Source: Candidatus Uhrbacteria bacterium (lineage in GTDB: Bacteria; Patescibacteriota; Patescibacteriia; UBA9934). From it: DNA of 64,000 bases. The notes beneath the pieces were generated by a model. It made no database searches and was not told where the DNA came from. It saw nothing but the letters and a program-made list of their open reading frames with translations. Positions within the stretch are counted from its first letter, which is position 1, and every line of letters begins with the position of its first letter. The position numbers were made by a program, and so were the translations under genes. The DNA lies in the NCBI GenBank assembly GCA_963822405.1, contig CAWGHH010000004.1, positions 6,226 to 70,225 of the forward strand, given 5' to 3'. This document shows, piece by piece, positions 9,401 through 48,933 of this stretch.

Positions 9401-11074
9401 AACAACTCCACAGCCCGCAAAAGAATTCAATGGATCGGCCGGTAATTCTTTTGTACCAAGCGCACCACCAAGTATATCTGCCCAGCTTGGCCAAGTACTA
9501 GCGGCTACGTTTCTGACAAATGTACCAGCGGCTAATTCAGGAACGATTGGCGAACAGGATTCACCAAGCGGACATTCGGCACTTGTAGAACAAAGCTTTG
9601 AACGCGTTCCCGAGCAAACGCTATTTTCAGTGCTATAAGTTTTTACAGCCGAACGAATATCCGTCAGATCAGACAGGCGACGTACATCACGACGCACCTT
9701 TGCCTTAGTAGAAAGACAAACCGCACCAGGAGCGGCCGAAACACAATCAGCATCTGACGAACAGGTCTTATCCGTCAATGTTCCGTTAGCCAAACAGACT
9801 GTGTCATTTCCAAGATCTATGGCAAAGGAAATATTTCCAAGCATTAAATCAAATATTTTTTGAGCCGAGGCACTTGCTCCGTCGTTATACGATAAAACGT
9901 AAATATTGGAGTATAGCTTTCCGCCGCTATAATTAGAGGCTGAGACATAAACTGTTCGACCATCACGAACTGCCTCAAAACCGTCTACAGTTGTGTTTAC
10001 CGGACTACCCTTGAAGTTCTGCGCGTCATACCAAGCACGCGGCGAAAGGTAGCCAGGGTTGCTGACAATTCTTACGCCAATAGCATCACCAGAGTTATCA
10101 CCGATTTCAAACAAATACTGCTTAAGAATGTTCGTCGTTCCGCCTACTGGTGCCCGAACCGGCGTCACCGAAGGCAAGTCGTCAGTCAGGCCGACAGCTC
10201 CCTGATCTCGACAGAAATACGTAGAGAAATTCATCCAGCCATTTCCCTCTGAAGCCAATCCTTGAGCTCCACCAGTAGCATTGTCCTGCCATGGGAATTT
10301 AGACAATGTTGGCCAAGGATTTTCACAAAGAAGGGCCGTAACCTGAGCCGATCCCTTAGTCTTTTTATCTTTTGTTCCGCCAAGTGTATCCGCAGTGATA
10401 ATGGCCTCGGCCAGAATAGTTGTCTGACCGTTCTTACCAACAGTAGCGATACTCGCGGTGCTGTGATCAACACTGCTCTGTAGGGCAGTAAATAAAGCAG
10501 CATCACCGCTCACCCACTTGTCATAATCCCAAGCGTACACGTTTACAATCGGCACAATTTCTTGCGGGCCAGTAGCGGAATGAGAAACCGCCTTCGCTAC
10601 AAAGTTATGCATCTGATCTCCACGAGTAAAGAGATATGGACTGGTTTTATCAGTGTCTGAAATCTGAACCGCATCGAGAGCACAAAGTGATGGGCCAGTA
10701 GTGAAAGTAGAGGAAGTGACACCGCCCAAAGCAACGCCAGATGCCGCAGCTATTCCGGTTACTGACGAGTCGTTCACGTTCGTGTCACCCTCGACGACTA
10801 AGGTGTACTTAGCATTTGGCTCAAGTGCTTTTGCGTACTTCAAGTAAACTTTGTAAGTGCCATCATCCTGTGCAACCTGCGAGTATCCAGTCACCGGCAA
10901 CAAACACTTGGCGCCAACATTCGGCGCAGCTGAGGCAGACGCGCCCATGAAGAACCGAACGATCGAGTTTTTGACTAACGCGAAGAATCCCTTTGGATCA
11001 TGCGAAAGGGCAACCTGATAGCCACTTGGGCAAGTCATGTTCGGAGATACTGGTTCGAGCTGGCCCAGGACCAA
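6470..11074 (-). CDS. Giant (>=1534 aa) secreted Cys-rich repeat protein with C-terminal vWA-like domain; start uncertain (may be fused to the upstream giant ORF)
   Basis: Long ORF. Multiple C-x-CGDG/CGNG...E-CDDG...C repeats (e.g. [29 protein letters not shown]; [28 protein letters not shown]) of the Myxococcus-type cysteine-rich-repeat kind. C-terminal region resembles a vWA fold (AYVVFVTT...[10 protein letters not shown]). The 5' end overlaps the upstream ORF by about 77 to 100 nt in another frame and the tracked start is TTG. Confidence 0.7.
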
Positions 11075-14000
11075 CCGGAGCGCCGCCAGTCTCCAAGCTC
11101 AAATACATGTGATTTGTTTCAACTGTAGTAGCACCAACCACACTTGTTGTTGTAAAAGATTCTGTGTTCATCTTCTGCGTAAAGATAGCGTAGATAGCCG
11201 GGTTTCTACATGACGTAGAAGACGCAGTTGGGAACAAAGTAGCAGTTGGCCTTGGCATGCAGCAGTGCGCCGAACCAACTCCGTAAAGCGAAGGATTTGT
11301 ACAGCTAGCATCAGACGTGGCCACGCAAGAAAGAGAAAGATCGGCTGTAGTAGAAAGACCGGACGAATCTTCAGTCACTTGCACGGTAGCTAGAGCCTTC
11401 TTGGTTGTTCCATCCACCTCGAACACTGCACCATCAGAAATCACCGCAGTTTGCAGAGGATCGATTCTGCCGTCACCGGCTACGCCAACTTCACAAGCTG
11501 GATATTCGCCCACTCCAGCAAACCCGTCACCACAGAAAGATGCTTCCGTGTAAGCCGTGGAGGATCCCTCAAATAGACAGCGACTAGAACAGCCATCGCC
11601 GCTTACTTGGCTGCTATCATCACAGTCTTCAAAGACAGGACTGACGTCCCCATCGCCACAACCCTGCGCCTCCGTACCACCTTCATGCAAACAAGAAGAC
11701 GAACAGCCATCGCCGTTTACCACGTTCGAATCGTCACAGCTCTCAGCTGGAGCATCAACTCGACCATCGCCACAAACAGCCCCACCAATAGAAGCTAAAG
11801 TTGGCGTACCTTCGTTTGTACAGTTAGAAGAACAGCCGTCACCGTTTCTAGCGTTCCCGTCATCACATTCTTCACCGGCTTTAGTAGTAGCGTTTCGAGC
11901 AATGTCGTTGTTTCCGCAGGTTGCACCAACAGATCTAGAACCTTCGGCCTGACATTTACTAGAACAGCCGTCACCGTCAACCCCATTATGGTCATCACAA
12001 TCTTCCGCTAGATCGATCGTTCCGTTTCCACACATTGGAACAATAGTACCTTCACGTAAACACGAGGCCGAACAGCCATCGCCGCTTGCTACATTACCGT
12101 CTTCGCATTCTTCACCAGCAGTCGCGTCAAGCCGACCGTCGCCGCAAATAGCACGGTAGGCCACGCTGCCACCGGCAGTACATGAAGCTGTACAGGCGGA
12201 AGGAACTGAAGATGGGGACGTGTCCTGTAACTTTCCACCCAACCATTCAGCAACTACCGTTGAAGCATTACCATCAATGTTCTTGTCTACGATCGGGTTC
12301 GCCCAAGACCAAGAATATGAGAATCCGGTGAGTCTCTGACCAGACTGAGAACAGCTATCAGCCTCTCCGTATGCAGTGCTAGAGAATGTTGCCCTATCCC
12401 CAATCGATTTAGCTAATACACTAGCCGGGGAAATAGAAACTCTATTCACAGCACAAGCACTAGCATCTTCTCGAGCCCGGAAAATCCAAGAATAATCGCC
12501 ACCGTCATTTGTTCTGATTAATGGCACGCCACTCATACTCTTAACCGAGCCTGAGACAATTACCTTGTAAAAAGTGCTCGGATTCAAAGTGACTGTGGAC
12601 AAGGAGAAACCAGTACAATCGCCGGAAATACCAGTAACAGTGATACATTTAGCATTTGGGTTGGCAACTTCGCTAGTCGAAGAACAGAGTTCATTAGCAC
12701 AAGAGAACAAGCGAACAGCACCAGCCATTTCAACAGTCTGTGGCTTCATTGGAATGTTGAAACTCGCCCCGATCTGAGCGTTCATGCAAGCAGAATCACA
12801 ATCCGGCCACACACCCGTGACGTACGGATCTGTAAATTTAATGGTCAAATCACCAGCGCCCGAAGTGGTAGTGGTTCCAACAGTTGCTTTCACCGGAGTC
12901 TGGCCCTCAGCTAAAGCTTCAGCTGTAGCGCAAGAACTATTGCCACCAACACAAGATGGATTAGCCGTGCTATTAAAACCAGCAAAACTTGGGTTCATGC
13001 TCCACGCCCAGGTCACTGAGGCTGGATCAACCACTACACATCCAGAGGTTGGCAAGGCCGAGAAACTCTGCGTAGCATTCTTTGTCGTAAGCGAGGCTTT
13101 AGACGGAGAAACGCGAGCGCTATCAATTACACATGAACCGGCGTCAGTCTTAGTTAAGAATGTCCATTGAACATCATTCGGAAGAGCTATCCCGTCAGCC
13201 GACTGCGCATCAGTGGTGACAGTCACTCGATAGGTTGTGCCGGTGGCAAACACTGAGCCCGGCTTAAAAGTGAACGAGCTAGCGGTAGTTTGAACTGATC
13301 CGGTTACTGAAACCGCCGTAGAACACGGGTTAGATCCACCACCAGAACAACGCTCAACTTTCACCGCGCTGCCAAGCGTCGCTTGATTCATTGGGACAGT
13401 GAACTCCGCATAAACAACCGCGTTCACACAAACGGTATCTGTGAACTTAATGTTCGGCACAGAAGAAACAACAGCCTGTGAACATTCAGAAACAATTCGC
13501 GGAACCTTTGGCACAGATCCAGAAGAGAAACTCCAGGCGTAGCCACCACCCACCGCGCCAAGAGATACTGCCGGCGAGGAGACCGAGAATGGCACGTCAT
13601 TTCCCTTTACGCCGGCCGCGTTTACCAGACGAACGTTTCCTGATTGCGCCGCCGGAGGGACTACTGCTTTTACTTCAGTGTTACTCCATGAGCTGATGAC
13701 AGAAGTGACGCTCGACGAAAAAGTAACCGCTCCTTTTGTGCTTCCAAAATGGTCGCCCACCATTTTAACGACGTCTCCCGAAACACCAGTGCCAGGAATA
13801 ATGCCACACACATTTGGAGCATCATCCGTGGTCGATATAGTGAATGGAATAGTATTCGAATTCTGACCTCCAGCTGTAGTCATTGAAATAGTGTAAGCAC
13901 CAGGAAGCAAAGCAGTTCCCGCAGTACTGCTACCAGGAACAATAAATCTAACTGAAGTTGGGCTCCATGGGTTTACGGTACCGCAAGCCGCCGGGAAGTC

Positions 14001-16136
14001 TAAGCTAGCAATACCAATATCACCCGTGGCTGTATTCTTAAATTTAACCGTACCTTTAGCTGTGCCAAAATTGGCGCCTTCTAAACTGACGTATCGGCCA
14101 ATACCGCCCTGTCCAGGGTTTATAGATAGAAGCGAAGGAGCAGGAGTATTGGTTCCTGCGGTACCACCGGCTGAAGGAGGAATAGTCGATCCTGGCGTAG
14201 TGCCACCGGGAGGCGTGGTTCCGCTCGGGGGTGTAGTTCCGCCAGCTGAAGAACCTGCAGCGGCCGAAGTAAACCGCAAGCTAATCGAATTTGAAGAAAC
14301 CCCAGTTCCAGAAACTACTCGAACGCCGAATAATCCGTCACGCGTAGAAAGCACCGGCACAACAACCTGGGCTGAAGTGTCGCCCCACACTGGATATGAA
14401 GAACCGGTTTGAGCATTACCGAATGCAATAGTCGAGGCATTCACGCCCGACGGAGTTCTGTTCGCCCCGAATCCAGCGCCGATCAAAGTCAGCGAATCAC
14501 CAGCCTTAGCGCTCATGGCTGAAAGGCTACAAAGGTTAGGATGAATCACCGCGTCAACCACGAAGTTAGCAATCAGTGGACCTCTAACGTCACCCGTAGC
14601 ATCACGGCCAAGATCATCAGTTGCGTCAGCTCGAACAATTGAAATTGGACCGTTACCGGTGCCAGCAGGCACAACCACAATTACCTGGCGATCAGTCCAA
14701 CCTCCGTCACATGGCGCAAGTTGCGCCTCGATTGGAGCGCCGGAAGTAGCGAAAAATACTTTTCCTGGCGTAGCTCCAAAACCGTTACCAGAAATAGTTA
14801 CGTAAGTTCCAGGCGCGCCAGAAAGAGGAGAAACAGCTCTGATCACCGTCATGGCCTTACAAGTACCATTAACACAAGAGCCGGATTGGCAGTCAGTTGA
14901 AGCAGTACAGACAGAACCATCACACGCACCACAGTAATTAATGTTGGTCGGATCTCCGCCACAATCAATTCCAGTTTCGCCACTGCCAGAATCTAGAATG
15001 TTATTTTGACAACTTGCTGGCGACAACATAACAGAAACCGAATCCTCGGCCGTGTTCCCGGCCAGGTCAGTAATCGTCGACGAAAGATTAATAGTGTTGC
15101 CCGCATCAATATTGCTCGTATCCCATGAAGTACTGATAGTCACATTTTTCGGATCAGTTCCGCTGGCTGGCACTTCGTCAAAGCTCACGCTGCCAGCTAA
15201 GAATGTAGCGCTTGCCACCCCAACGTCGTCCGTTCCGATCACCTGCACATTCTGTGAACTATTCGCAGCGATTCGTTGTCCAGAAGTAGGGTCAGTTAAT
15301 CTGGCAGTTGGTGCTGTTTCGTCAATGATCGTCCCAGTTGTAAACGTGCCGGTACATGGACGGCTAGTAGGACAGGTCAACGCAGCCGCAGAAGTATTCT
15401 TAATGGCAGTAGTTAAAGTAACAGTGAACTGTGTGCTAGCGTCGAAACATCTAGTCACGGAACCAGTGGAACAAGGCGTAGTTGGCTTAAACGTGATCAC
15501 GTTCCCAGAAACGGAAGGCGTGCCATCAATAACCGCGCCGGTAAGTGTATTTTTTACTGTGAATGCCCCAGCGATGCTTGCTGGATCAACATTCTTTGAG
15601 AATGTAACCCGAACTTGAGGATTACGAATAGTGATTTCTCCGGCAGGTTTTACGCCAGTCACTACGAATGCACTACCAGAGCCTCCGCCAAGCGCCGAAC
15701 CTCCGCCGGCACCACCCCCACCACCAGTGCCACCGCTCCCGCCGGCTCCAGTCGCGCCCAAGATAGAGGACATAACAAAAGACACAATAGACCAGGACAT
15801 CAAGATAATCATGAGGCCAATTCCACCACCAATCAAAATCTTTTTAGCTTTCGCGACATTCTCTTCGTTTCCAGCGGCCGTCATCCAAACAAAACCACCG
15901 TAAAGAACAATCACCACCGCCACAACACCAAGCAAAGAAATTCCAGTTCTAATCAAGCGCGCCACGATGAGTCTAGGATCTTCGCTGCCCAAGCCAGCTG
16001 ACTGCCCCACCACATCAAGCCCGCCCTGGACATCCGCCGACTGGGCTAAAGCGATCATCGGCAAAGCGAACGGCAAGGCCGTACTCGCCATGACGAGTGC
16101 TCCGAGGACTAGATGTTTTAAGGGCTTGATGTTCAC
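10998..16136 (-). CDS. Giant (1712 aa) cell-surface protein: signal peptide + 2-TM hairpin anchor, Gly-rich linker, Ig-like and IPT/TIG-like domains, Thr/Pro linker, six Cys-rich CGDG...CDDGN...GDGCS repeats
   Basis: N-terminus MNIKPLKHLVLGALVMASTALPFALPMIALA-QS (AxA-type cleavage site). TM1 ISLLGVVAVVIVLYGGFVWMTAAGNEENVAKAKKILI, TM2 GGGIGLMIILMSWSIVSFVM, then a GGSGGTGGGGGAGGG linker. IPT/TIG-like segments (SGAPGTYVTISGNGFG; GQGGIGRYVSLEGANFG; GVSGDVVKMVGDHFG). C-terminal repeats such as ICGDGRLDATAGEECEDGNVASGDGCSASC, six copies. Confidence 0.85.
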   Translation of the reverse strand: MNIKPLKHLVLGALVMASTALPFALPMIALAQSADVQGGLDVVGQSAGLGSEDPRLIVARLIRTGISLLGVVAVVIVLYGGFVWMTAAGNEENVAKAKKILIGGGIGLMIILMSWSIVSFVMSSILGATGAGGSGGTGGGGGAGGGSALGGGSGSAFVVTGVKPAGEITIRNPQVRVTFSKNVDPASIAGAFTVKNTLTGAVIDGTPSVSGNVITFKPTTPCSTGSVTRCFDASTQFTVTLTTAIKNTSAAALTCPTSRPCTGTFTTGTIIDETAPTARLTDPTSGQRIAANSSQNVQVIGTDDVGVASATFLAGSVSFDEVPASGTDPKNVTISTSWDTSNIDAGNTINLSSTITDLAGNTAEDSVSVMLSPASCQNNILDSGSGETGIDCGGDPTNINYCGACDGSVCTASTDCQSGSCVNGTCKAMTVIRAVSPLSGAPGTYVTISGNGFGATPGKVFFATSGAPIEAQLAPCDGGWTDRQVIVVVPAGTGNGPISIVRADATDDLGRDATGDVRGPLIANFVVDAVIHPNLCSLSAMSAKAGDSLTLIGAGFGANRTPSGVNASTIAFGNAQTGSSYPVWGDTSAQVVVPVLSTRDGLFGVRVVSGTGVSSNSISLRFTSAAAGSSAGGTTPPSGTTPPGGTTPGSTIPPSAGGTAGTNTPAPSLLSINPGQGGIGRYVSLEGANFGTAKGTVKFKNTATGDIGIASLDFPAACGTVNPWSPTSVRFIVPGSSTAGTALLPGAYTISMTTAGGQNSNTIPFTISTTDDAPNVCGIIPGTGVSGDVVKMVGDHFGSTKGAVTFSSSVTSVISSWSNTEVKAVVPPAAQSGNVRLVNAAGVKGNDVPFSVSSPAVSLGAVGGGYAWSFSSGSVPKVPRIVSECSQAVVSSVPNIKFTDTVCVNAVVYAEFTVPMNQATLGSAVKVERCSGGGSNPCSTAVSVTGSVQTTASSFTFKPGSVFATGTTYRVTVTTDAQSADGIALPNDVQWTFLTKTDAGSCVIDSARVSPSKASLTTKNATQSFSALPTSGCVVVDPASVTWAWSMNPSFAGFNSTANPSCVGGNSSCATAEALAEGQTPVKATVGTTTTSGAGDLTIKFTDPYVTGVWPDCDSACMNAQIGASFNIPMKPQTVEMAGAVRLFSCANELCSSTSEVANPNAKCITVTGISGDCTGFSLSTVTLNPSTFYKVIVSGSVKSMSGVPLIRTNDGGDYSWIFRAREDASACAVNRVSISPASVLAKSIGDRATFSSTAYGEADSCSQSGQRLTGFSYSWSWANPIVDKNIDGNASTVVAEWLGGKLQDTSPSSVPSACTASCTAGGSVAYRAICGDGRLDATAGEECEDGNVASGDGCSASCLREGTIVPMCGNGTIDLAEDCDDHNGVDGDGCSSKCQAEGSRSVGATCGNNDIARNATTKAGEECDDGNARNGDGCSSNCTNEGTPTLASIGGAVCGDGRVDAPAESCDDSNVVNGDGCSSSCLHEGGTEAQGCGDGDVSPVFEDCDDSSQVSGDGCSSRCLFEGSSTAYTEASFCGDGFAGVGEYPACEVGVAGDGRIDPLQTAVISDGAVFEVDGTTKKALATVQVTEDSSGLSTTADLSLSCVATSDASCTNPSLYGVGSAHCCMPRPTATLFPTASSTSCRNPAIYAIFTQKMNTESFTTTSVVGATTVETNHMYLSLETGGAPVGPGPARTSISEHDLPKWLSGCPFA

Positions 16137-16145
16137 AATAGAAGA

Positions 16146-17936
16146 TTAAAAGAGGACGCAGGCAGAAGCCGACGAAACTCCGTTGCAACAGTAAGGGGAA
16201 GAGGCAGTAACACCACAAACACCACCCGTCGCATCCGGTCCAGCGCCTGGTACATAACAATTCTGATACTCGTTCAAAAGTCCACTCGTGACCGTCGAGC
16301 CATATTCGTAAGTCTTGCCGTCAACTGACTGCAGGAACGTACCGTGGCTTATTTTCACAAGCGTCTGAGCGGGAATCTGAGAACCAGAAGTCACTAACTC
16401 GCCATTACTCGTTAAGTATGAAGTGCTTGGCGAATACCACATTTCATGCGAAGTGTTGGTTGATAATTCCTTATTAGACAAACTAATCGTGTCTTGTGAA
16501 ATGGTCGAGGTCATTAAAACGCCATCAAAAGTCACCAGCACTGGCTGATCAAGTGGCACATTCTCCTCAGAAATATTCGGCGAGATAGAAGTTATACTTG
16601 GCCCCTTAAGCGCAATGTCACCAGTGGTCGAAAAGCCCCAGGCGAAGCTGTCTCCGGCCGTTCCGTCATGATTACCGTCTAACGAGTTACCAGCCATGTC
16701 GACAACCCCGTCATATGGGAAGATATCAGCCTGCGGAGGATTCGTGGTGGTAGTCGCGCCTCTAACAGTTGCTGTCAGAGTACTGCTTCCCGGAAGACAG
16801 ACGATTGTTTCACCGCAAGAATTAGTTCCGCATGGACTGTCAGAATGGAACGTAACTGATGTATAGCCGTTGGAAATTTCATACGTTCCAGTCACCGGAG
16901 TAGCACCAGCAGTAATGGCGATATTTGAAAATCCCCCAGCCTGAGCGTGTTGACCGGAAGCTGACGTAGGATCAACTGGTTCAGAAAAAGTAGCTTGCAC
17001 TACAATGTTTCGAGCAAACGTACCAGCATTTGCCGGCGTCACGCTCACGATAGTAGGAGGCGTGAGATCAAGAACGGTACCAGTTTCAAATGACCATTTG
17101 TAACCACCGCTATATGAACCAGCAAAGATTTTGTTTCCGCTGGCATTTTTAATATCAGCAGTCAGTTGCACCGTGTACTGCACTTTACTGGTTGGCGAAC
17201 CTAAATAGACGGCCGGCTTAAAGACAAAAGTCCTGTGATCATCAGTCGAGCTGATCGTCACATCTGTCAAAGCTCCTGGCGCACCAGACGCCGTAGGAAA
17301 AATCTTAACCGAGCCTACCGTGACCGTAGCTGGATCAATCGCTTCCTTAAAAGTAAGCATCACTTTAGCGTTCCTCGCTACGTCTGTTTGATTACGTGTT
17401 GGGTAGTGATCACGAATCGGCCCGGAACCAAGCGCGCCAGATAGACTCTCTACGGAAACTCCCCCATTACCGCCGCCACCAGTACCGCCATTACCACCGC
17501 CAGTACCACCGGTGATAGCGTTTATCACGAATGTTGTAATCCCGTATGCGCTCAGCGTAATAACAATTCCGACCGTAGCTTGAATTAAAATATTCTTAGC
17601 CTTAACAACCTTTTTGTCATCCCCACCGGCCGTCATCCAGATAACTCCAGCGTAGATTGTCAAAATAAGAAAAACAACTCCCAACAATCCTAGGAATATG
17701 CTGATTATTCGACCGATGATTGTAGGAAGATCAGCTCCCCCAAGTCCGGCCGTGGCCGCTACCTGCGCTGCTTGATCTGTCTGCGCTAAAACGTGTGGCG
17801 CAGAAAATAAAAAGCCGCCCACAAAAACACCAAGGCCAAGTAAAAGAGAAATCCGCGCCGTTCGGCTCAACATAGTCCCCACTATTTTACCGCAAAAAAA
17901 GAGTCCCCACGTTATTTGCATGGGGACACTTTCCAA
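16146..17936 (-). CDS. Cell-surface protein (596 aa by first ATG; likely start at 17873) with the same signal-peptide/2-TM N-terminal module followed by bacterial Ig-like (Big/SbsA-type) domains
   Basis: MLSRTARISLLLGLGVFVGGFLFSAPHVLA-QT, then IIGRIISIFLGLLGVVFLILTIYAGVIWMTAGGDDKKVVKAKNILIQATVGIVITLSAYGI, then GGTGGGNGGTGGGG. Big-like PTIVSVTPANAGT...VQATFSEPVDP. The N-terminal module is collinear with that of the 1712-aa protein. Confidence 0.85.
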   Translation of the reverse strand: MESVPMQITWGLFFCGKIVGTMLSRTARISLLLGLGVFVGGFLFSAPHVLAQTDQAAQVAATAGLGGADLPTIIGRIISIFLGLLGVVFLILTIYAGVIWMTAGGDDKKVVKAKNILIQATVGIVITLSAYGITTFVINAITGGTGGGNGGTGGGGNGGVSVESLSGALGSGPIRDHYPTRNQTDVARNAKVMLTFKEAIDPATVTVGSVKIFPTASGAPGALTDVTISSTDDHRTFVFKPAVYLGSPTSKVQYTVQLTADIKNASGNKIFAGSYSGGYKWSFETGTVLDLTPPTIVSVTPANAGTFARNIVVQATFSEPVDPTSASGQHAQAGGFSNIAITAGATPVTGTYEISNGYTSVTFHSDSPCGTNSCGETIVCLPGSSTLTATVRGATTTTNPPQADIFPYDGVVDMAGNSLDGNHDGTAGDSFAWGFSTTGDIALKGPSITSISPNISEENVPLDQPVLVTFDGVLMTSTISQDTISLSNKELSTNTSHEMWYSPSTSYLTSNGELVTSGSQIPAQTLVKISHGTFLQSVDGKTYEYGSTVTSGLLNEYQNCYVPGAGPDATGGVCGVTASSPYCCNGVSSASACVLF

Positions 17937-18016
17937 CCCAGAGAGAAATATGTATCAGAAAATTTTTAGGAGGTAACCCGACTCAAATTTTATGATGCAT
18001 ATTTCTCTCTGGGTTG
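17936..18016. repeat. Conserved-loop hairpin element, copy 1 (about 30-bp perfect stem; loop TTAGGAGGTAACCCGACTC on the plus strand)
   Basis: Left arm aacccagagagaaatatgtatcagaaaattt, loop ttaggaggtaacccgactc, right arm aaattttatgatgcatatttctctctgggtt. The arms are reverse complements, allowing G-U pairs. Confidence 0.85.
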
Positions 18017-18028
18017 TAAGCCTTTTCA

Positions 18029-19935: not shown

Positions 19936-21315
19936 TTACTTAATCTCAGTTTTAGCGAGTGCCTTAACCTTTAGTTCCTGTAGTCTTTTTGCCACTATAC
20001 CCACCACCTTTTCTACATCTACAATTTCCTGCGCACCTGATTCCATATCACGGATGATGATAGTACCGTCAAGAACTTCTTTCTGGCCTAGAATAACCGC
20101 AATCGGCGACTTAAGTTTATCAGCAATTTCCAGCTGAGCCTTAAGATTCGATTTTGAAAATGCCTCCGCCACATCAACGCCAGCCTCGCGGAACTTCTCG
20201 AAAGTTTTCAACCCTTTTCTACGAGCAGCTTCTCCAAGCTGACAGAAAAATACATCCGAACGACGTCTTGGATCAGGAAGCTTGCCCGCCGCCCGAGCGG
20301 CAATGAGCACGCGTTCAAGTCCAATAGCAGCACCCACAGCACTAGTTCCTTCGCGGCCACCAAATAGTGGAATCAAACCGTCATAACGTCCGCCCCCACC
20401 AAGTGAACTCTGTGCGCCCTCATCAGCTGGAGGATTAGTTAGAACTACTTCAAACACCGTCTTAGTGTAGTAATCAAGACCTCTAACAAGGTGCGGGTTA
20501 AGGGTGTACTGCACCTCAGCTTCATCTAAATATTCAAGTACCTTCATGAAGTGCTGCTTTGATTCATCATCAAGATAATCAATAATCTGTGGCGCTTCGT
20601 TTTTCAGTTCCTCCATGCCTGGCTCTTTAGAGTCAAGAAGACGTAGAGGGTTCTTTGTTAGACGCTTCTGATCAGTTTCCGACAACTTCTTTTTGTTCGC
20701 TTTGAAAAACTTAACCAGTTCCGCCACATAAGCACGACGAGAAGTAGGCGTTCCAAGTGAGTTCACCTGGATAGTGACATCAAGTCCCATGTCTCTACAG
20801 AAACGCTCACACATGAGCATAATCTGGGCATCAAGCACTGGATCATCAGAGCCTATAGCCTCCATGCCAAACTGCCAGAATTGGCGGTAACGACCAGCTT
20901 GTGGACGTTCATGTCGGAAAAATTGTTCGCTGTACCATAACTTCACTGGTTGTGGCTGGTTCAACATGCCGTGCTCAATATATGCCCGGGCAATCGCTGC
21001 CGTGCCCTCTGGACGCATAGTCATGCGCACTCCCCCTTGATCCGTAAAAGTAAACATCTCTTTCTCAACTACATCTGTATCCTTACCAACTCCGCGCTCA
21101 AAAAGCGCCGTCTGCTCAAGCACTGGCAAACGAATACGCCCAAAGCTATATGCTCGAGACAAAGACTTCATTACGTCATCCATCTTATCCCAAGCGGCTT
21201 GTTCGTCTGGAAGAATGTCACGAAAACCACGAGGTGTTTCCGGTACCTTTGATTTTTTTGCTGGAGCCTTCTCAATAATCGTGGCTGGGGCTGGTTTCAA
21301 GGGCATAGTGATCAC
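19936..21315 (-). CDS. hisS: Histidine--tRNA ligase
   Basis: 459 aa. PRGFRD and RPEGTA class-II HisRS motifs, plus C-terminal anticodon-binding domain. Confidence 0.93.
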   Translation of the reverse strand: MITMPLKPAPATIIEKAPAKKSKVPETPRGFRDILPDEQAAWDKMDDVMKSLSRAYSFGRIRLPVLEQTALFERGVGKDTDVVEKEMFTFTDQGGVRMTMRPEGTAAIARAYIEHGMLNQPQPVKLWYSEQFFRHERPQAGRYRQFWQFGMEAIGSDDPVLDAQIMLMCERFCRDMGLDVTIQVNSLGTPTSRRAYVAELVKFFKANKKKLSETDQKRLTKNPLRLLDSKEPGMEELKNEAPQIIDYLDDESKQHFMKVLEYLDEAEVQYTLNPHLVRGLDYYTKTVFEVVLTNPPADEGAQSSLGGGGRYDGLIPLFGGREGTSAVGAAIGLERVLIAARAAGKLPDPRRRSDVFFCQLGEAARRKGLKTFEKFREAGVDVAEAFSKSNLKAQLEIADKLKSPIAVILGQKEVLDGTIIIRDMESGAQEIVDVEKVVGIVAKRLQELKVKALAKTEIK

Positions 21316-26660: not shown

Positions 26661-26737
26661 GGAATGAAGAGATATGTCCCATAAAATTTGAGTCGGATTA
26701 CCTCCTAAAAATTTTATGGGACATATCTCTTCATTCC
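26661..26737. repeat. Conserved-loop hairpin element, copy 2a (loop GAGTCGGATTACCTCCTAA on plus, the complement of the other copies)
   Basis: Arms ggaatgaagagatatgtcccataaaattt and aaattttatgggacatatctcttcattcc are perfect reverse complements around a 19-nt loop. Confidence 0.9.
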
Positions 26738-26739
26738 TA

Positions 26740-26818
26740 GGGCGAATCGTAAATGTCCTCCAGAAATTTTTAGGAGGTAATCCGACTCAAATTTCCGGAG
26801 GATATTTACGATTCGCCC
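26740..26818. repeat. Conserved-loop hairpin element, copy 2b (loop TTAGGAGGTAATCCGACTC), adjacent to 2a in the inverse core orientation
   Basis: Arms gggcgaatcgtaaatgtcctccagaaattt and aaatttccggaggatatttacgattcgccc, with two G-U-type mismatches. Confidence 0.9.
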
Positions 26819-32325: not shown

Positions 32326-33804
32326 ATGCCCGAATTAGAATTTTCAACTCTACACGCCGCGCTTGATGATCGGTACTCCGCAGCGGACATTAAATTAATC
32401 GAACACGCTTTTGCGTATGCAAAAATGGCCCATACAGGCCAGGCTCGGCACACTGGCGAGCCGTACTTTGCGCACTGTGCAAACGTTGGCCTTAAGCTCG
32501 CCAACCTAAAATTGCCAAGCGAGGTTATCGCCGCCGGACTGTTGCACGACGTACCGGAGGATACCGAAAAAACACTCGATGACCTTGAGATGGAGTTTGG
32601 TGCAGACATTAGAAGCATGGTCGGCGCTATCACTAAACTCGGAAAAGTGAAATACAGAGGCGAAGAACGCTACGCTGAAAACCTCCGCAAAATGTTCGTG
32701 GCGATGGCGGAAGACGTGCGCGTAATTTTTATTAAGTTCGCTGATAGACTGCATAACCTTGAAACACTTTACGCACTCCCGGAAGCTAAACGACAACGTA
32801 TTGCCAAAGAGGTCCTGGAAATTTACGCGCCGATTGCCAATCGTTTAGGCATGGGTGAATACCGCGGAGAGTTTGAAGATTACGCTTTTAAGTACCTTGA
32901 ACCAAAAGAGTACAGCTGGACTCAGCATCTTCTGGAAGAACGCGTCAAAAAGTTTGGCCCCGCGCTTGATCGAGCGTTACATGATGTTGCGCTCGAACTC
33001 AACAAACACGGCATCACTGGCGCTAATGTTCATGGTCGAGTCAAACACGCCTACAGTCTGCACCGCAAACTAGATCGCTATAAACAAGACATCGGCAAAG
33101 TTTACGACATCGTTGCCCTTCGGGTGGTAGTCAAAGATATTCCCGAGTGTTACGCGGTACTTGGTATTCTTCACGGCATGTACACCCCGCTACCTGGACG
33201 CATTAAAGACTACATCGCCCAACCAAAACCAAACGGCTATCAGTCACTTCACACTACAGTTTTTGACCATGAAGGCTCTATTCTCGAGTTTCAGATTCGA
33301 ACCGTTCAGATGCACGAAGAAAATGAATACGGAGTCGCCGCTCACTGGAAATATAAAGAGGGCGATGACGTGAAAGCCCGCCAAGTTCACTGGATGGAAG
33401 AACTCGCCGCCATTCAAAAAGAATTGTCCGCTAGTGACTTCATGAAACATCTAAACGATCTCAAGTTGGACATGTTTAGAGATCGCATTTTCGTCTTTAC
33501 TCCCCGCGGCGACGTGCTCGATCTCCCCGAGGAATCAACCCCCGTCGACCTCGCGTATTCTGTGCATTCCGAAATCGGCAACAAAGCCGTGCAAGCTCGC
33601 ATCAACGGCGAGATCGCTTCCCTTTCTACTCCCCTCAAATCCGGCGACCTTTGCGAAATCATCACCGACAAAAACCGAAAATATCCAAACGAGGACTGGT
33701 TAAAGTTTGTAAAAACAAGACACGCGAGAGATAAAATAAAAGACGCGCTCAAAGATTCCAAGACGGGCATTATTTCGTCACTTATTAAAAAATATCGAGG
33801 CTAA
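32326..33804 (+). CDS. Bifunctional (p)ppGpp synthetase/hydrolase, short RelA/SpoT homolog (HD + synthetase + TGS, no ACT)
   Basis: 492 aa. HD motif HTGQARHTGEPYFAHCANV...LLHDVPEDT, synthetase YQSLHTTV, TGS domain IFVFTPRGDVLDLP. Confidence 0.9.
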   Translation: MPELEFSTLHAALDDRYSAADIKLIEHAFAYAKMAHTGQARHTGEPYFAHCANVGLKLANLKLPSEVIAAGLLHDVPEDTEKTLDDLEMEFGADIRSMVGAITKLGKVKYRGEERYAENLRKMFVAMAEDVRVIFIKFADRLHNLETLYALPEAKRQRIAKEVLEIYAPIANRLGMGEYRGEFEDYAFKYLEPKEYSWTQHLLEERVKKFGPALDRALHDVALELNKHGITGANVHGRVKHAYSLHRKLDRYKQDIGKVYDIVALRVVVKDIPECYAVLGILHGMYTPLPGRIKDYIAQPKPNGYQSLHTTVFDHEGSILEFQIRTVQMHEENEYGVAAHWKYKEGDDVKARQVHWMEELAAIQKELSASDFMKHLNDLKLDMFRDRIFVFTPRGDVLDLPEESTPVDLAYSVHSEIGNKAVQARINGEIASLSTPLKSGDLCEIITDKNRKYPNEDWLKFVKTRHARDKIKDALKDSKTGIISSLIKKYRG

Positions 33805-34107: not shown

Positions 34108-34138
34108 ATATTATAGCAGAAAAATGGGCTTTTGTCAA
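34108..34138 (-). promoter_or_regulatory. Consensus sigma70 promoter, TTGACA-N17-TATAAT (module A of three near-identical copies)
   Basis: Minus strand: TTGACA (34138..34133), 17 nt, TATAAT (34115..34110). About 20 nt upstream of the GGAGG-ATG of the 82-aa ORF. Confidence 0.7.
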
Positions 34139-34392
34139 TCATAAAATACCAAAAAGAGGCTAATATAAGCAGTAAAGTTTCCGGCATAGCCGGACCCGGT
34201 TCCGCCGGGAAAAAGGTTAAAAATGCTGAAAAGTAATAATCTGATGGTTCAGACACTTTTTCAACTTTCTTGGCTTTTTTGACTCAAAAAAACAAAAGCG
34301 CACCTGGAGGCGGATGGCTTCTGGAAGCATTTCTGCTTCTCGCCACCCGCGCAGATGCGCGAGATCAGCTTTCGATCATTCAAGAGAATCGT

Positions 34393-34693: not shown

Positions 34694-34722
34694 AGGATAA
34701 CACAAAAAATCACCTTTGTCAA
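34694..34722 (-). promoter_or_regulatory. sigma70-like promoter, module B (TTGACA-N17-TATCCT) sharing the upstream AGAGGCTAATAT element
   Basis: Minus strand TTGACA at 34722..34717. Sequence is collinear with modules A and C across about 50 nt. Confidence 0.5.
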
Positions 34723-34810
34723 TGGTTTTATACAAAAAAGAGGCTAATATGAGCCTCTTTCAGGGTGAGCTCGCTTCCCCCTTTTAGGGGGATTAAAGGG
34801 GGTCGATGGT

Positions 34811-40525: not shown

Positions 40526-40583
40526 AATTCAGCTCCTACTTTGACGCCCGGGCAAACCCGGGCGTTTGTATATTCAGCCTTTT

Positions 40584-40668
40584 CCAAACCAAAAGCGACA
40601 CACTGTCATAAAATTTTTAGGAGGTACTCCGACTCAAATTTTAGGATAGTGTGTCGCTTTTGGTTTGG
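40584..40668. repeat. Conserved-loop hairpin element, copy 3 (loop TTAGGAGGTACTCCGACTC)
   Basis: Arms ccaaaccaaaagcgacacactgtcataaaattt and aaattttaggatagtgtgtcgcttttggtttgg, 33 bp with G-U pairs. Confidence 0.9.
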
Positions 40669-40675
40669 ATCCGCA

Positions 40676-42082
40676 CTAGGCAAGCTTAATATTCGCCTCT
40701 TTCAGTGCCTTCTCAGGCAGTGGAGAAGGCGCACCCATCATGTGGTCTCGAGCGTTTCCGTCCTTCGGGAATGCCATTACTTCACGAATGTTCGCCTCGC
40801 CCTGGAATAATGCCATAACGCGGTCTACGCCGAGCGCAATACCTCCATGTGGTGGTGCGCCAAGTTCAAACGCTTTCATCATGTGACCAAACTGTGCATC
40901 GATCGTTTCAGCCGGGAAACCCATGATCTCGAATACTTTTCTGAGCGCGTCTGGCTGATGATTACGGATAGATCCACCACCGATTTCAAAACCGTTTAGC
41001 ACAATGTCGTACTGACTAGTGATGATATTGCCAACATCTTCTTTGCTCATGAGCTTGTCGTGCCATTCTGGCAATGCAGCCGAGAATGGATTATGGGTAA
41101 AGGTTCATCCACCGTCTTCTGTCTTTTCAAAGAACGGGAAGTCAATTACCCAACAGAACGCGAATAAGTTAGGATCATTCTTGTCTTCACGAATATCTGG
41201 ACGGTCATTTCCATACTTCTCCATGGATTCTTTATAGGTCATGCGTGGAAACGGCAATGCCTGGATCTTAGCGTCTGGTCTATATGTTTTAACGAGCTGA
41301 ATCAAAAGTTCTTCGATCATGCTCATCACATCTTCACGTTCCACAAAGCTCATCTCAAGGTCGAGCTGAGTAAATTCTGGCTGACGATCTCCACGTTGAT
41401 CCTCATCACGGAAACACTTGGCTAGCTGATAATAGCGTTCAACACCGGCCACCATAAGCAACTGTTTAAATTGCTGCGGTGACTGCGGAAGAACATAAAA
41501 ATTACCTGGGTGCGGACGAGAAGGCACAATGAATTCACGCGCACCTTCAGGAGTTCCTTTGGTGAGGATCGGAGTTTCAACCTCAATAAATCCTTTCTCA
41601 TTGAAATACTTACGCATGTCTTGAAATACAGCGTGACGAGTTCGCAGGTTCTTCTGCATGCGCTCCGAACGAAGATCGAGATAGCGGTAAGCCAAACGAG
41701 TCTCCTCATTCACCGGCAAGGTATCTTTATCGATTTCAAATGGCGGAGTCTTGGACTCGTTCAACACCTTCACAGATTTTGCTAGCAGTTCAACCGTTCC
41801 GGTCTTGATCTTATCGTTAATCTGCTTCGGGCCTCGAGCCTGGACTACTCCCTCAATCTCAACTACCCACTCAGGACGAACTTTGTTCGCTGCCTCAGCA
41901 GTATCACCGACCTCCGAAGGAACAATAACTACTTGCAATAAACCGTTCTTATCACGCAGATCAAAAAACGCTACCTTGCCCATGTCACGACGAGCGTGAA
42001 CCCAACCAGCCACCTTCACCGTCTCACCAACCTTACCCACTGTCTCTGACGAATAAATTCGTTGCATATAATTATCTAGCAT
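40676..42082 (-). CDS. aspS: Aspartate--tRNA ligase, compact type lacking the GAD insertion; interrupted by an in-frame TGA at 41105..41107
   Basis: N-terminal OB-fold plus motifs 1 and 2 (FRDEDQRGDRQPEFTQLDLEMSF) in ORF 41105..42082, and motif 3 (GGIALGVDRVMAL) in ORF 40676..41074. Both are in the same frame, separated only by TGA: ...FFEKTEDGG*TFTHNPFSAALPEW... aligns without a gap to the E. coli GEGGLTAMHHPFTSP region. Confidence 0.88.
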
Positions 42083-42261
42083 TTAATCTTGTAATTATTT
42101 GAGGGCGTGAGGGATATTGCTAATGCAGCGAGGAATTGCATTTATTAGGAGGTCGACATCCTTCGAATTTTCAGAAAATAGTTCGACCGACTCTAAATGC
42201 CCGCGCCAAGTCAGCAACATCCCTCGTGCCCGAAAGCTCATAAAGAAAGAATTCAGTGGGC

Positions 42262-42398
42262 GAATAAAAAACTCGCCCTCACAACACAATTCATTTAAGA
42301 ATTATGTGCTAAGGGCGAATTTCATTTCGCGGTGCCACCTTGCTTTGTACTTTTTATTAAGTTTTAGCCCGGCGCGATTGTCAGTCGCGTCTAACTGC
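42262..42398 (-). promoter_or_regulatory. T-box-like riboswitch leader of aspS (short stem I with GAC specifier in a hairpin loop, T-box sequence, terminator/antiterminator)
   Basis: Minus-strand leader: specifier hairpin cgcga-cuGACAa-ucgcg (42389..42373); T-box motif AAGGUGGCACCGCG (42341..42328; consensus AGGGUGGNACCGCG, with the UGGC bulge complementary to a G73-CCA acceptor end); competing helices gcgaa/uucgc and aaauucgcccu/agggcgaguuu followed by UUUUUU (42270..42265). Confidence 0.6.
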
Positions 42399-42404
42399 CC
42401 AATG

Positions 42405-42433
42405 ACCATAGGCTGAGCCGAAAAAGTTGTCAA
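42405..42433 (-). promoter_or_regulatory. sigma70 promoter for the aspS leader (TTGACA-N17-TATGGT)
   Basis: Minus strand TTGACA at 42433..42428 and TATGGT at 42410..42405. Confidence 0.5.
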
Positions 42434-47516: not shown

Positions 47517-47642
47517 TCCCGGCGGAAGACTACCGTGCCGTACTGCGGATTCGCGTCATCGTTCCTGTTGTCGTTCAGCTTCGGCGAACCGTTCCACACC
47601 AGGAGGTACGCGCAGTTCGAGCGGTTCTCACGGTGGACGGAA
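47517..47642 (-). repeat. DGR template repeat (TR), 126 bp
   Basis: 88% identical to 47965..48090. All 12 mismatches have T on the plus strand (A in the minus-sense TR) where the VR has C, G or A. Confidence 0.9.
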
Positions 47643-47960
47643 AGATCTTCTGTATGCCAGACCCCATCTATTTCACCTCAGCTTCCGCACTAGGCGCGAG
47701 GTTGCTGATGAATTTCATTTAGGCCATATCCTAAGAATCTGGCAAGGAGTGTCTCATCTGATCGTACGCTCCCGTGTCTCACAACACGGAATTCTGACGA
47801 TAGCTCGTTTGAGGATTTCGGGGCCGGAGAGGCTTAGTTCTTCGTTCATTACCCTACTCTCAAGATGAGTATATATGAAAATCCTCCAGTCAGCTTGCGC
47901 CGACCGGAGGATCGAGGGTTGATGGCACGAGAAGCACCGAGAACCCAATGACCGAGGACT

Positions 47961-48740
47961 TTACTCCCGGCGGAAGACTACCGCGCCGCACTGCGGATGC
48001 GCGTCATCGTCCCTGAAGCCGTGCAGCTTCGGCGAACCGTACCACACCAGGAGGTACGCGCAGCACGAGCGGTTCCCACGGTGGACGGAACCAGGCAAGT
48101 CCATCACGTGCTCGCCTTCCACCGCCACGTTCTGGCTCTGATGGTGAATCCAGATTGCCAGGCCAACTTCCGCAGTTCCAGGGAAGAAGCCACGCTTCAC
48201 GGCCTCTTCCCGGCACACGCTCGGCTTCTTGCCGCGGTTCACGCGCCCGTCATGCGCCCGGATCCAGTGTGGCTCTGCCGGCGTGATGTCGCGCGGGCTG
48301 TACGGCTCCAGATTGGACACGCCGCAGTCTTTCACGAGAGCCAGCTCGCAGGTCTTCACCAGCCCGTTGACCGGGTAGACGAGGGTCAGGAGCGGGAAGT
48401 CGGGGTCATGCTCGAGGAGCGAGTCCGGGATCTCCGGGATGGTGGCCAAGAAGGCCTCCCAGAGATCCTTGCCCTTAAGCCGCCCGTTGAACTTCAGGTC
48501 GTACAAGCGCTTCGCCTGCGTTACCCGGGTATCGTCCGGCTTGCGGCGGCCCAACTTCTGAAGCGCCTCCTGGAAGGCCTTGGGCAGCTTGTTGCCGGAC
48601 TCGATGATCCGCTGAGCGGACTCGCCGTCCAACTCGTCCAACTTGCTCGTGAGCACCAAGAAGGCGTCCTCCACGAACCGCTTAAGTTGTTTCTTCTGTC
48701 CATCCGTCTGACCAGACGTGATCGCCTTGGGCGTCATCAT
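47961..48740 (-). CDS. DGR target protein (259 aa) with C-terminal variable region
   Basis: GGAGG-N-ATG at 48740. The C-terminal 42 codons coincide with the VR. GC-rich. The N-terminal domain is unassigned. Confidence 0.8.
   Translation of the reverse strand: MMTPKAITSGQTDGQKKQLKRFVEDAFLVLTSKLDELDGESAQRIIESGNKLPKAFQEALQKLGRRKPDDTRVTQAKRLYDLKFNGRLKGKDLWEAFLATIPEIPDSLLEHDPDFPLLTLVYPVNGLVKTCELALVKDCGVSNLEPYSPRDITPAEPHWIRAHDGRVNRGKKPSVCREEAVKRGFFPGTAEVGLAIWIHHQSQNVAVEGEHVMDLPGSVHRGNRSCCAYLLVWYGSPKLHGFRDDDAHPQCGAVVFRRE
47965..48090 (-). repeat. DGR variable repeat (VR) at the 3' end of the target gene
   Basis: Starts 1 nt after the TAA stop (47961..47963) and covers the last 42 codons (...CCAYLLVWYGSPKLHGFRDDDAHPQCGAVVFRRE). 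Confidence 0.9.
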
Positions 48741-48815: not shown

Positions 48816-48844
48816 ATCATAGCAAAAAAATGGTCTTTTGTCAA
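48816..48844 (-). promoter_or_regulatory. Consensus sigma70 promoter, module C (TTGACA-N17-TATGAT) for the DGR target gene
   Basis: Minus strand TTGACA at 48844..48839 and TATGAT at 48821..48816. Same module as A and B, including the upstream GGCTAAT element. Confidence 0.65.
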
Positions 48845-48933
48845 GGTAAAATCACCATAAATTGGCTAATTCAAGCCAAACAAAAAGTCCATCTCTAGAT
48901 TCTTCGCCCATGCTCAGAAACGAATTCGGCAAA

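Follow-up and report, generated by a model that had tools for sequence, protein, structure and literature searches.

How little RNA can suffice to sense whether a tRNA is charged? The question is raised by a leader that lies in front of aspS, the gene for aspartyl-tRNA synthetase (AspRS), in a 64,000-nt stretch of contig CAWGHH010000004.1 from a Candidatus Uhrbacteria bacterium. This whole stretch is referred to below as the window; all coordinates are positions within it unless a locus is named, and both the leader and aspS lie on its minus strand. The original prediction had placed here a minimal T-box-like riboswitch that presents an aspartate codon in a short hairpin loop. Our analysis favors, with a probability of roughly 0.6, the view that the leader is a transcription-attenuating T-box riboswitch for aspS with a core of ~ 79 nt, in which tRNA-Asp would be sensed by pairing with its anticodon and its 3' end only.

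Architecture of the leader

Read in the direction of transcription, the leader is preceded by the promoter that had been predicted, of the sigma-70 type (42405-42433, minus strand), with a -35 box TTGACA (42433-42428), a 17-nt spacer and a -10 box TATGGT (42410-42405). It agrees with the consensus at 10 of 12 positions and places the transcription start near 42398, ~ 8 nt ahead of a hairpin. This hairpin, a putative ultrashort Stem I (42373-42389, minus strand), consists of a five-base-pair stem, CGCGA (42389-42385) and UCGCG (42377-42373), and the loop CUGACAA (42384-42378). The proposed specifier GAC at 42382-42380 is followed by an A, so that the claimed hairpin with GAC plus a purine is found on the minus strand exactly where it had been described. 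The folding energy of the isolated hairpin is -4.7 kcal/mol. It is followed by a linker of 31 nt (42342-42372, minus strand; 65% purine, 48% A) that has no conserved structure and whose 3' part reads AAAAAG-UAC-AAAGC.

The linker leads into a T-box antiterminator (AAGGUGGCACCGCGAAAUGAAAUUCGCCCUU; 42311-42341, minus strand) built from helix A1 (AAGG/CCUU), helix A2 (GCGAA/UUCGC) and the loop AUGAAA. It begins with the T-box sequence AAGGUGGCACCGCG at 42341-42328, which includes the 7-nt bulge UGGCACC (42337-42331); the exact motif GGTGGNACCNCG occurs only once in the window. An intrinsic terminator follows (42266-42322, minus strand), in which the outer helix is formed by AAAUUCGCCCU (42322-42312) and AGGGCGAGUUU (42279-42269), encloses the inner helix ACAUAAUUC/GAAUUGUGU and ends in a tract of six uridines (U6, 42271-42266). 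The 5' arm of the terminator (42322-42312) is the 3' half of the antiterminator, that is, the 3' strand of A2 and A1, so the two folds are mutually exclusive. The T-box sequence and the competing helices with their U6 tract are thus all in place, as originally claimed. The isolated antiterminator has a folding energy of -6.1 kcal/mol, while that of the terminator is -30.3 kcal/mol; because the terminator is far more stable, termination is expected to be the default, and read-through should need a stabilizing ligand, as it does in T-boxes generally.

In T-boxes, a G.U wobble pair at the base of helix A2 serves as a steric sensor of the aminoacyl group. This pair is G-C in the window and in 25 of 25 short-Stem-I leaders, and also in 24 of 72 other sampled T-boxes; G-C at this position is a common variant.

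Which parts of a canonical T-box are missing? No kink-turn (K-turn; GA motif) was found at the base of Stem I, where the flanks UUAGA and CCGGG of the window are not conserved across the eight minimal leaders described below. There is also no long Stem I carrying a distal platform (AG bulge and distal loop) for stacking on the tRNA elbow, only ~ 8 nt being available between the inferred start and the 5-bp hairpin. The linker showed no conserved pairing in RNAalifold and holds neither an AGUA nor a CCGUUA motif, and thus neither a Stem II S-turn nor a Stem IIA/B pseudoknot (F-box). Stem III is absent as well, and a conserved ...AAR-AG-nnn-AAAGYA tract stands immediately before A1, which may be a retained Stem-III-flanking purine string (typically 5'-RRRxG...AA-3'). 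A longer canonical Stem I upstream of the promoter was considered and rejected: the distance between promoter and hairpin is fixed, the same promoter drives aspS in a relative without the leader (L210), and Rfam gave no Stem I signal.

Recurrence, covariation and selection

The next question is whether this arrangement belongs to a single genome or is maintained more widely. The nearest AspRS proteins in a protein comparison come from Patescibacteria and Ca. Uhrbacteria metagenome-assembled genomes, so that the original prediction was right to suspect a genome of the candidate phyla radiation (CPR). Relatives of the window AspRS at 85-92% protein identity were traced to their source contigs (L081, L083, L204, L205 and L206), and extra minimal leaders were obtained from a metagenome scan for CAAAGYAAGGTGGNACCGCG and with our own covariance model R1 (L162/L165 and L125). 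The minimal set comprises eight independent sequences (window, L081, L083, L204, L205, L206, L162 and L125; alignments A1 and A3, the former with seven leaders). The same minimal leader is therefore present before aspS in seven further diverged Patescibacteria contigs, with the promoter equidistant in each. The position of the promoter is kept in relatives: each of the seven leaders in alignment A1 has a -10 box TATnnT (TATGGT in five of them) equally far from the hairpin, and the equivalent promoter of L125 reads TTGACA-17-TATCGT.

Across the eight leaders, the core measures 77-79 nt from the first base of the hairpin to the last base of the antiterminator. The hairpin stem is paired in 92.5% of alignment cells, with three of its five pairs changed on both sides; the loop consensus is YUGACAY, and GACA is invariant (8/8). 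Linker length varies only from 30 to 33 nt and purine content from 62 to 76%, at a sequence identity of 52-90%. In the antiterminator, all cells are paired and the bulge is invariant. The outer and inner helices of the terminator are 92.2% and 98.4% paired, respectively, and both partners have changed in six terminator pairs. Of 500 column shuffles, just one reached the covariation observed in the hairpin and antiterminator, and in a control in which the pairing partners were slid along the alignment, pairing fell to 29-46%.

Could such similarity simply reflect recent common descent? At fourfold-degenerate third positions of aspS, identity between the window and its relatives is 29-39%, i.e., these sites are essentially saturated, and over the same comparison the loop is 57-100% and the antiterminator 84-97% identical. 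With neutral sites saturated and loop and antiterminator conserved, the leader must be under purifying selection and is not merely young.

L162 (8191-8420), L165 and L125 (3560-3720) keep the minimal leader and the order recO, leader, aspS, and the inner terminator helix too has survived there. The gene downstream of the L162 leader encodes an archaeal-type AspRS of 437 amino acids that matches the AspRS(Asn) model NF003483; the N-terminus encoded in L125 is, by reading only, very similar to that of L162, which is the sole basis for calling it archaeal-type. L162 thus appears to be a case of non-orthologous displacement of the regulated gene in situ, with the leader retained. Since the leader is kept before a non-orthologous AspRS, its conservation tracks the amino acid and not the coding sequence.

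Fuller relatives and the origin of the minimal form

A longer leader precedes aspS in L208, L211 and L212, whose AspRS proteins are 82-84% identical to that of the window, and in the more distant L004 and L052. The Rfam T-box model (RF00230) aligns over its full length with these fuller leaders and scores 41-63 bits (E-values between 1e-6 and 1e-11), which is still below its gathering score of 93 bits, and in this alignment 74 distal Stem I model positions are replaced by a 4-nt loop center. The fuller leaders have a K-turn (UGA...GAGC), an ultrashort Stem I whose loop reads CUGACAC, the S-turn AGUAGA in Stem II, the F-box CCCGUUA in a IIA/B pseudoknot and sometimes a Stem III; the Stem II/pseudoknot region is followed by CAAAGUAAGGUGGCACCGCG and a terminator. 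With the fuller Patescibacteria T-boxes as a group (L208, L211, L212, L004, L052, L084, L101, L105 and L179-L181), the window leader shares the promoter-proximal hairpin with the loop YUGACAY, the sequence CAAAGYAAGGUGGCACCGCG, the basal G-C pair of A2, the terminator and the aspS context. It differs from them in that they keep the K-turn, the S-turn of Stem II and the F-box pseudoknot and, in some cases, Stem III. These leaders are evidently ancestors or sisters of the window element.

The comparison makes it possible to assign the parts of the minimal leader. The short hairpin of the window is the homologue of Stem I, since Rfam treats its counterpart in the fuller relatives as Stem I. The antiterminator/terminator pair is a genuine T-box 3' domain, homologous to that of the fuller T-boxes, and the local Rfam match described below has the correct structure. 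What sets the minimal type apart from the fuller form is the absence of the K-turn and of all sequence from GCUAAA... up to the purine tract that precedes A1; the linker takes the place of the K-turn 3' strand, Stem II, the IIA/B pseudoknot and Stem III. The window type is a derived deletion, descended from a fuller CPR T-box that lost these domains together with the K-turn.

The leader can also be missing altogether. In L210 (930-1003; AspRS 87% identical), aspS directly adjoins the promoter CTTGCG-17-TATGGT, the entire T-box leader being cleanly absent, and no leader is present in L213 or L001-L003. The original prediction had looked to conservation upstream of aspS in related genomes, and this holds for the eight minimal leaders, but it is not universal.

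Loop triplet and downstream gene

If the loop triplet is a specifier, it should change with the regulated gene. The combination of GAC with a UGGC bulge was found before AspRS genes at no fewer than 12 loci among the reduced leaders from the metagenome scan. AAC with UGGC precedes genes of the AspRS family in L052, L100 and L121; the L052 protein is bacterial-type by reading, the L100 gene carries no assignment, and the best NCBIfam match of L121 (leader at 1000-1090) is AspRS(Asn), under the curated cut-off and for a 76-amino-acid fragment. UAC with UGGU stands before tyrS in L146 (5930-6060; TIGR00234, 1.9e-59), and CCU with UGGU before the N-terminus of a pyrroline-5-carboxylate-reductase-like (ProC-like) protein in L159 (3020-3130; PF03807). 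In related reduced leaders, these combinations indicate that the loop triplet follows the downstream gene. The UGGN sequence of the bulge shows a pattern of its own, with UGGC accompanying the Asp and Asn triplets and UGGU the Tyr and Pro triplets. In T-boxes, the N of UGGN pairs with the cognate tRNA's discriminator base. A UGGC bulge predicts G73 on tRNA-Asp, and G73 is the discriminator base of bacterial tRNA-Asp.

Several further leaders were noted in the same searches. In L133 (4900-4990), a possible ACC with UGGU lies ahead of a gene for a CsaA/Trbp111-like tRNA-binding protein. The reduced T-boxes of L146, L159, L133 and L121 have a K-turn and an ultrashort Stem I, and their middle domains are unlike standard Stem II and IIA/B. 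L185 (4706-4840) has a short leader with CAAAGCAAGGUGGCACCGCG and no terminator, in which GGCACC is complementary to a GGUGCC in the Shine-Dalgarno region; this GGUGCC directly precedes the ATG of a bacterial AspRS of 608 amino acids. The L185 leader looks like a reduced translational T-box outside Actinobacteria. On the minus strand of L189 (7301-7760), there is a T-box of the canonical long-Stem-I kind, whose specifier region is UAC (Tyr) and whose bulge is UGGU, and which has a terminator; the gene that follows it ~ 65 nt downstream encodes tRNA-Tyr(GUA), not a protein.

Comparison with known T-boxes

Actinobacterial ileS T-boxes with an "ultrashort Stem I" were reportedly described by Sherwood, Grundy and Henkin in 2015, and the original prediction had likened the window leader to this reduced type. 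The likeness extends to the truncated Stem I, the lost platform and the pairing with both the anticodon and, through the bulge, the NCCA end, which is predicted for the window. In the structures from Mycobacterium and Nocardia, the elbow platform is gone and translation is controlled by sequestration of the Shine-Dalgarno sequence (PMC7583486, PMC12990946). The window element is more reduced than this class: it has none of the compensating K-turn, Stem II S-turn and pseudoknot and also no Stem III. It also controls aspS, belongs to Patescibacteria and has an intrinsic terminator with a U6 tract, so that its control is predicted to be transcriptional and not translational; no Shine-Dalgarno pairing by the window element was seen.

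The smallest well-studied transcriptional T-boxes, those of glyQS in Bacillus and Geobacillus, are similar to the window leader in being transcriptional, in lacking Stem II and IIA/B and in having a flexible linker; it has been argued for this type that Stem II can become superfluous where codon and anticodon form a G+C-rich pair (PMC7583486). However, glyQS keeps a long Stem I, a K-turn, a double T-loop platform stacking on the tRNA elbow and a Stem III with flanking purines, whereas the window leader has a 5-bp hairpin for its Stem I and 2-5 nt in place of Stem III. Common to the RF00230 consensus and the window are A1, the UGGNACC bulge and A2.

Has such an element been seen before? In TBDB, short-Stem-I (class II) T-boxes were searched for in Actinobacteria only, and the literature that we searched, the coverage of which is incomplete, yielded no description of T-boxes in CPR, Patescibacteria, Saccharibacteria or Parcubacteria. 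With RF00230, minimal-type leaders score 23-29 bits, and all eleven CPR leaders submitted fell under the Rfam gathering score or gave no match at E <= 0.1. Patescibacteria would thus use T-box regulation in a form that is missed by standard Rfam annotation. At gathering thresholds, Rfam reported three tRNAs only in the whole window, and further T-boxes in the window were found neither with Rfam (E <= 0.5) nor with model R1 nor by motif search.

Proposed mechanism

In the proposed mechanism, the loop CUGACAA would offer GAC, a codon for Asp, for pairing with the anticodon GUC of tRNA-Asp, the 31-nt unstructured purine-rich strand would connect the hairpin to the antiterminator, and the UGGC of the bulge would pair with the free 3' GCCA of uncharged tRNA-Asp. 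Pairing with the tRNA would hold the weak antiterminator against the strong terminator, and RNA polymerase would read through into aspS; with charged tRNA, or with no tRNA, transcription would terminate at the U6 tract. How could two short contacts be sufficient? The hairpin resembles an anticodon loop, with its 5-bp stem, its 7-nt loop and U before and A after the triplet, and may enter a kissing complex of up to five pairs (UGACA with U33-A37) that could compensate for the missing Stem II. Transfer RNAs with complementary anticodons form unusually stable complexes. The constant length of the linker may act as a ruler between both tRNA contacts; a stacked purine strand of ~ 31 nt can span ~ 75 Angstrom, the distance from the anticodon to the tRNA 3' end.

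We give an even chance to the wider proposition that this is the smallest natural tRNA-sensing riboswitch: an RNA-only module of 77-79 nt, about the size of a tRNA, that would control termination with two pairing sites and a fixed-length single-stranded ruler and would belong to an uncatalogued, Rfam-invisible Patescibacteria radiation of ultrashort-Stem-I transcriptional T-boxes. If this is true, T-box function does not inherently depend on the elbow platform, the K-turn, Stem II, the pseudoknot or Stem III. A leader without supposedly essential domains, yet selected in at least eight diverged genomes, would amount to a natural experiment on the minimal sensor of tRNA charging, and it suggests what the origin or the end state of T-boxes may look like: a codon-bearing hairpin and an NCCA-binding switch. 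A 79-nt construct is directly testable, and the element would make an attractive, very small orthogonal part that responds to tRNA.

Evidence against the proposed mechanism and alternative explanations

A number of observations weigh against a tRNA-Asp sensor of this kind. Transcriptional T-boxes need a long Stem I with an elbow platform; a truncated Stem I makes Stem II, the K-turn and the pseudoknot essential, deletion of the pseudoknot costing ~ 1,200-fold in binding; and an antiterminator without Stem III binds tRNA poorly (all PMC7583486). Every domain named as essential there is missing from the window leader. In the single-sequence minimum free energy (MFE) fold of the window leader, other pairings outcompete the specifier hairpin, which is seen only in the consensus fold. 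The strictly minimal architecture is known from Asp examples only, and the match between codon and gene was seen only in somewhat less reduced relatives. Neither the window nor any of the 60 loci searched contains a tRNA-Asp gene; because no such gene of the lineage was found, the GUC anticodon and G73 are assumed on the basis of bacteria in general. Evolution can dispense with the leader, as L210, L213 and L001-L003 do without it, and the window copy itself stands before an aspS that has a premature TGA, with 129 nt inserted into the 5' untranslated region (UTR). The Rfam check that had been suggested returned, at relaxed thresholds, an RF00230 match at 42345-42311 that covers model positions 183-216 only (A1, bulge and A2) with all pairs standard, while positions 1-182 have no counterpart in the window leader. 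The antiterminator was therefore matched with the correct structure, but at 23.4 bits against the gathering score of 93, and with E-values of 0.0046 in a 701-nt search and 0.42 for the whole window; taken alone, this match is weak evidence.

Such a sub-threshold match as the sole database support might suggest a chance resemblance in an ordinary promoter-proximal hairpin and terminator, an explanation of practically negligible probability in view of the eight conserved copies and the graded series of homologues that leads to leaders aligned by RF00230 over their full length. The missing domains raise a weightier alternative, namely that the leader is a T-box RNA that needs a helper: a protein or another trans-acting factor would replace the K-turn, Stem II, pseudoknot and Stem III, and the RNA alone would not respond to tRNA. 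All T-boxes studied are reported to need these domains, and T-boxes may be assisted by proteins that bind K-turns (PMC7583486); the constant length and purine content of the linker could just as well point to a site where a protein binds. However, no candidate gene is linked to the leader, its neighbors being recO, the hypothetical gene and scpAB, and the anticodon-loop geometry of the hairpin, with its 5-bp stem and 7-nt loop, allows an explanation by RNA alone; we consider a helper unlikely. It is quite unlikely that only the tRNA 3' end is sensed, in which case any uncharged tRNA ending in GCCA would be read and the hairpin would serve transcript stability, folding or pausing. The antiterminator is indeed the best-conserved part of the leader, 100% paired and with an invariant bulge, and the hairpin is weak (-4.7 kcal/mol) and absent from the single-sequence MFE fold, but the GACA of the loop is invariant in all eight leaders while stem and flanks vary, and the homologous hairpin of the fuller relatives is Stem I to Rfam, with a triplet that varies with the gene (UAC with tyrS, CCU with the proC-like gene, AAC).

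Could the leader instead be a decaying relic, which lost tRNA sensing after the deletion from Stem II to Stem III and persists as a leaky constitutive attenuator on its way to loss? The series among close relatives from full (L208, L211, L212) through minimal (the window group) to absent (L210, L213) would fit, as would the additional damage near the window copy, i.e., the UTR insertion and the TGA in aspS. Nevertheless, loop, antiterminator, terminator and linker length have been kept, and the stems covary, while neutral sites became saturated; and a terminator of -30 kcal/mol that nothing can counter should be selected against in front of aspS, a normally essential gene of which the window has no second copy. 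A relic is accordingly very unlikely. The exact anticodon-arm geometry of the hairpin, with its 5-bp stem, 7-nt loop and U before and A after the triplet, would also suit a mimic bound by AspRS in an autoregulation similar to that of the E. coli thrS operator. Such a mimic is highly improbable, as the leader is also kept before the non-orthologous archaeal-type AspRS, and we rejected it because the loops hold codons (GAC, UAC, CCU) and not the anticodon GUC. The RNA-only tRNA-Asp sensor remains the reading that we prefer.

The aspS gene and the insertion in its 5' UTR

The gene order around the leader is recO, the small divergent hypothetical gene, leader, aspS, scpA and scpB. The aspS gene (40678-42067, minus strand; ATG at 42067, TAG at 40678) has 463 codons and encodes a bacterial-type AspRS without a GAD insertion (NF001750/TIGR00459). 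Its codon 321 (41107-41105) is an in-frame TGA, at a position where 10 of 10 relatives have TGG (Trp) within the motif GGWTFTHNPF, and the public gene call for the window aspS is a shortened protein of 320 amino acids (P0069). An alternative genetic code with UGA as a sense codon was rejected, given the same TGG in all ten relatives and several long window genes, four of them of more than 400 codons, that have no in-frame TGA. The TGA is thus a single TGG-to-TGA change: either a nonsense variant, or an error of sequencing or assembly, or a UGA that is translated as Trp by read-through.

Between the terminator and aspS lies a long imperfect hairpin of 129 nt (42103-42231, minus strand) that is not part of the T-box. 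The UTR with this hairpin has an MFE of -63.7 kcal/mol (z -5.2). Because of this insertion, the distance from the U tract to the ATG is 198 nt in the window compared with 15-37 nt in relatives. At this position, the hairpin is unique to the window, being absent in L081, L083, L204, L205 and L206, and its arms had no matches elsewhere in the loci. It belongs to a palindromic family with further copies at 17931-18019, 26668-26730, 26740-26818 and 40583-40669 and, outside the window, at ~ 4393-4475 in L081 and ~ 2556-2640 in L204. The members are intergenic hairpins with stems of 25-35 bp that vary between copies yet stay paired, and their apex is conserved as AAAUUU-GAGUCGG(A/G)(U/G)UACCUCCUAA-AAAUUU. 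The apical motif GAGUCGGnnUACCUCCUAA / CGGAUUACCUCCUAA resembles the 3' end of 16S rRNA (anti-Shine-Dalgarno), and on the opposite strand the sequence is UAGGAGGU. Directly 3' of aspS, a copy is conserved in the window, L081 and L204, and the UTR copy of the window contains a nested hairpin of 33 nt. Rfam returned no family match for these hairpins, only spurious matches to miRNA precursors.

Other features of the window

A second synthetase gene, hisS (19936-21315, minus strand), has no leader or T-box in front. Near it, a RelA/SpoT-family protein with HD_4, RelA_SpoT and TGS domains is encoded at 32326-33804 on the plus strand, and the organism therefore also has a ribosome-linked route for sensing uncharged tRNA. 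Three kinds of repeats were observed in addition. A 58-nt motif, ...TTTTGTCAA...GGCTAATAT.AGC, occurs in three copies (34113-34170, 34697-34754 and 48819-48876) that are 76-78% identical and looks like a shared promoter or leader element. Within a very large open reading frame (10998-16136), five 48-nt repeats with a spacing of 108-132 nt lie at 11565-12095 and probably reflect repeated protein domains. Finally, the region 47517-48090 contains a direct duplication of 126 nt, with copies at 47517 and 47965 that are 90% identical.

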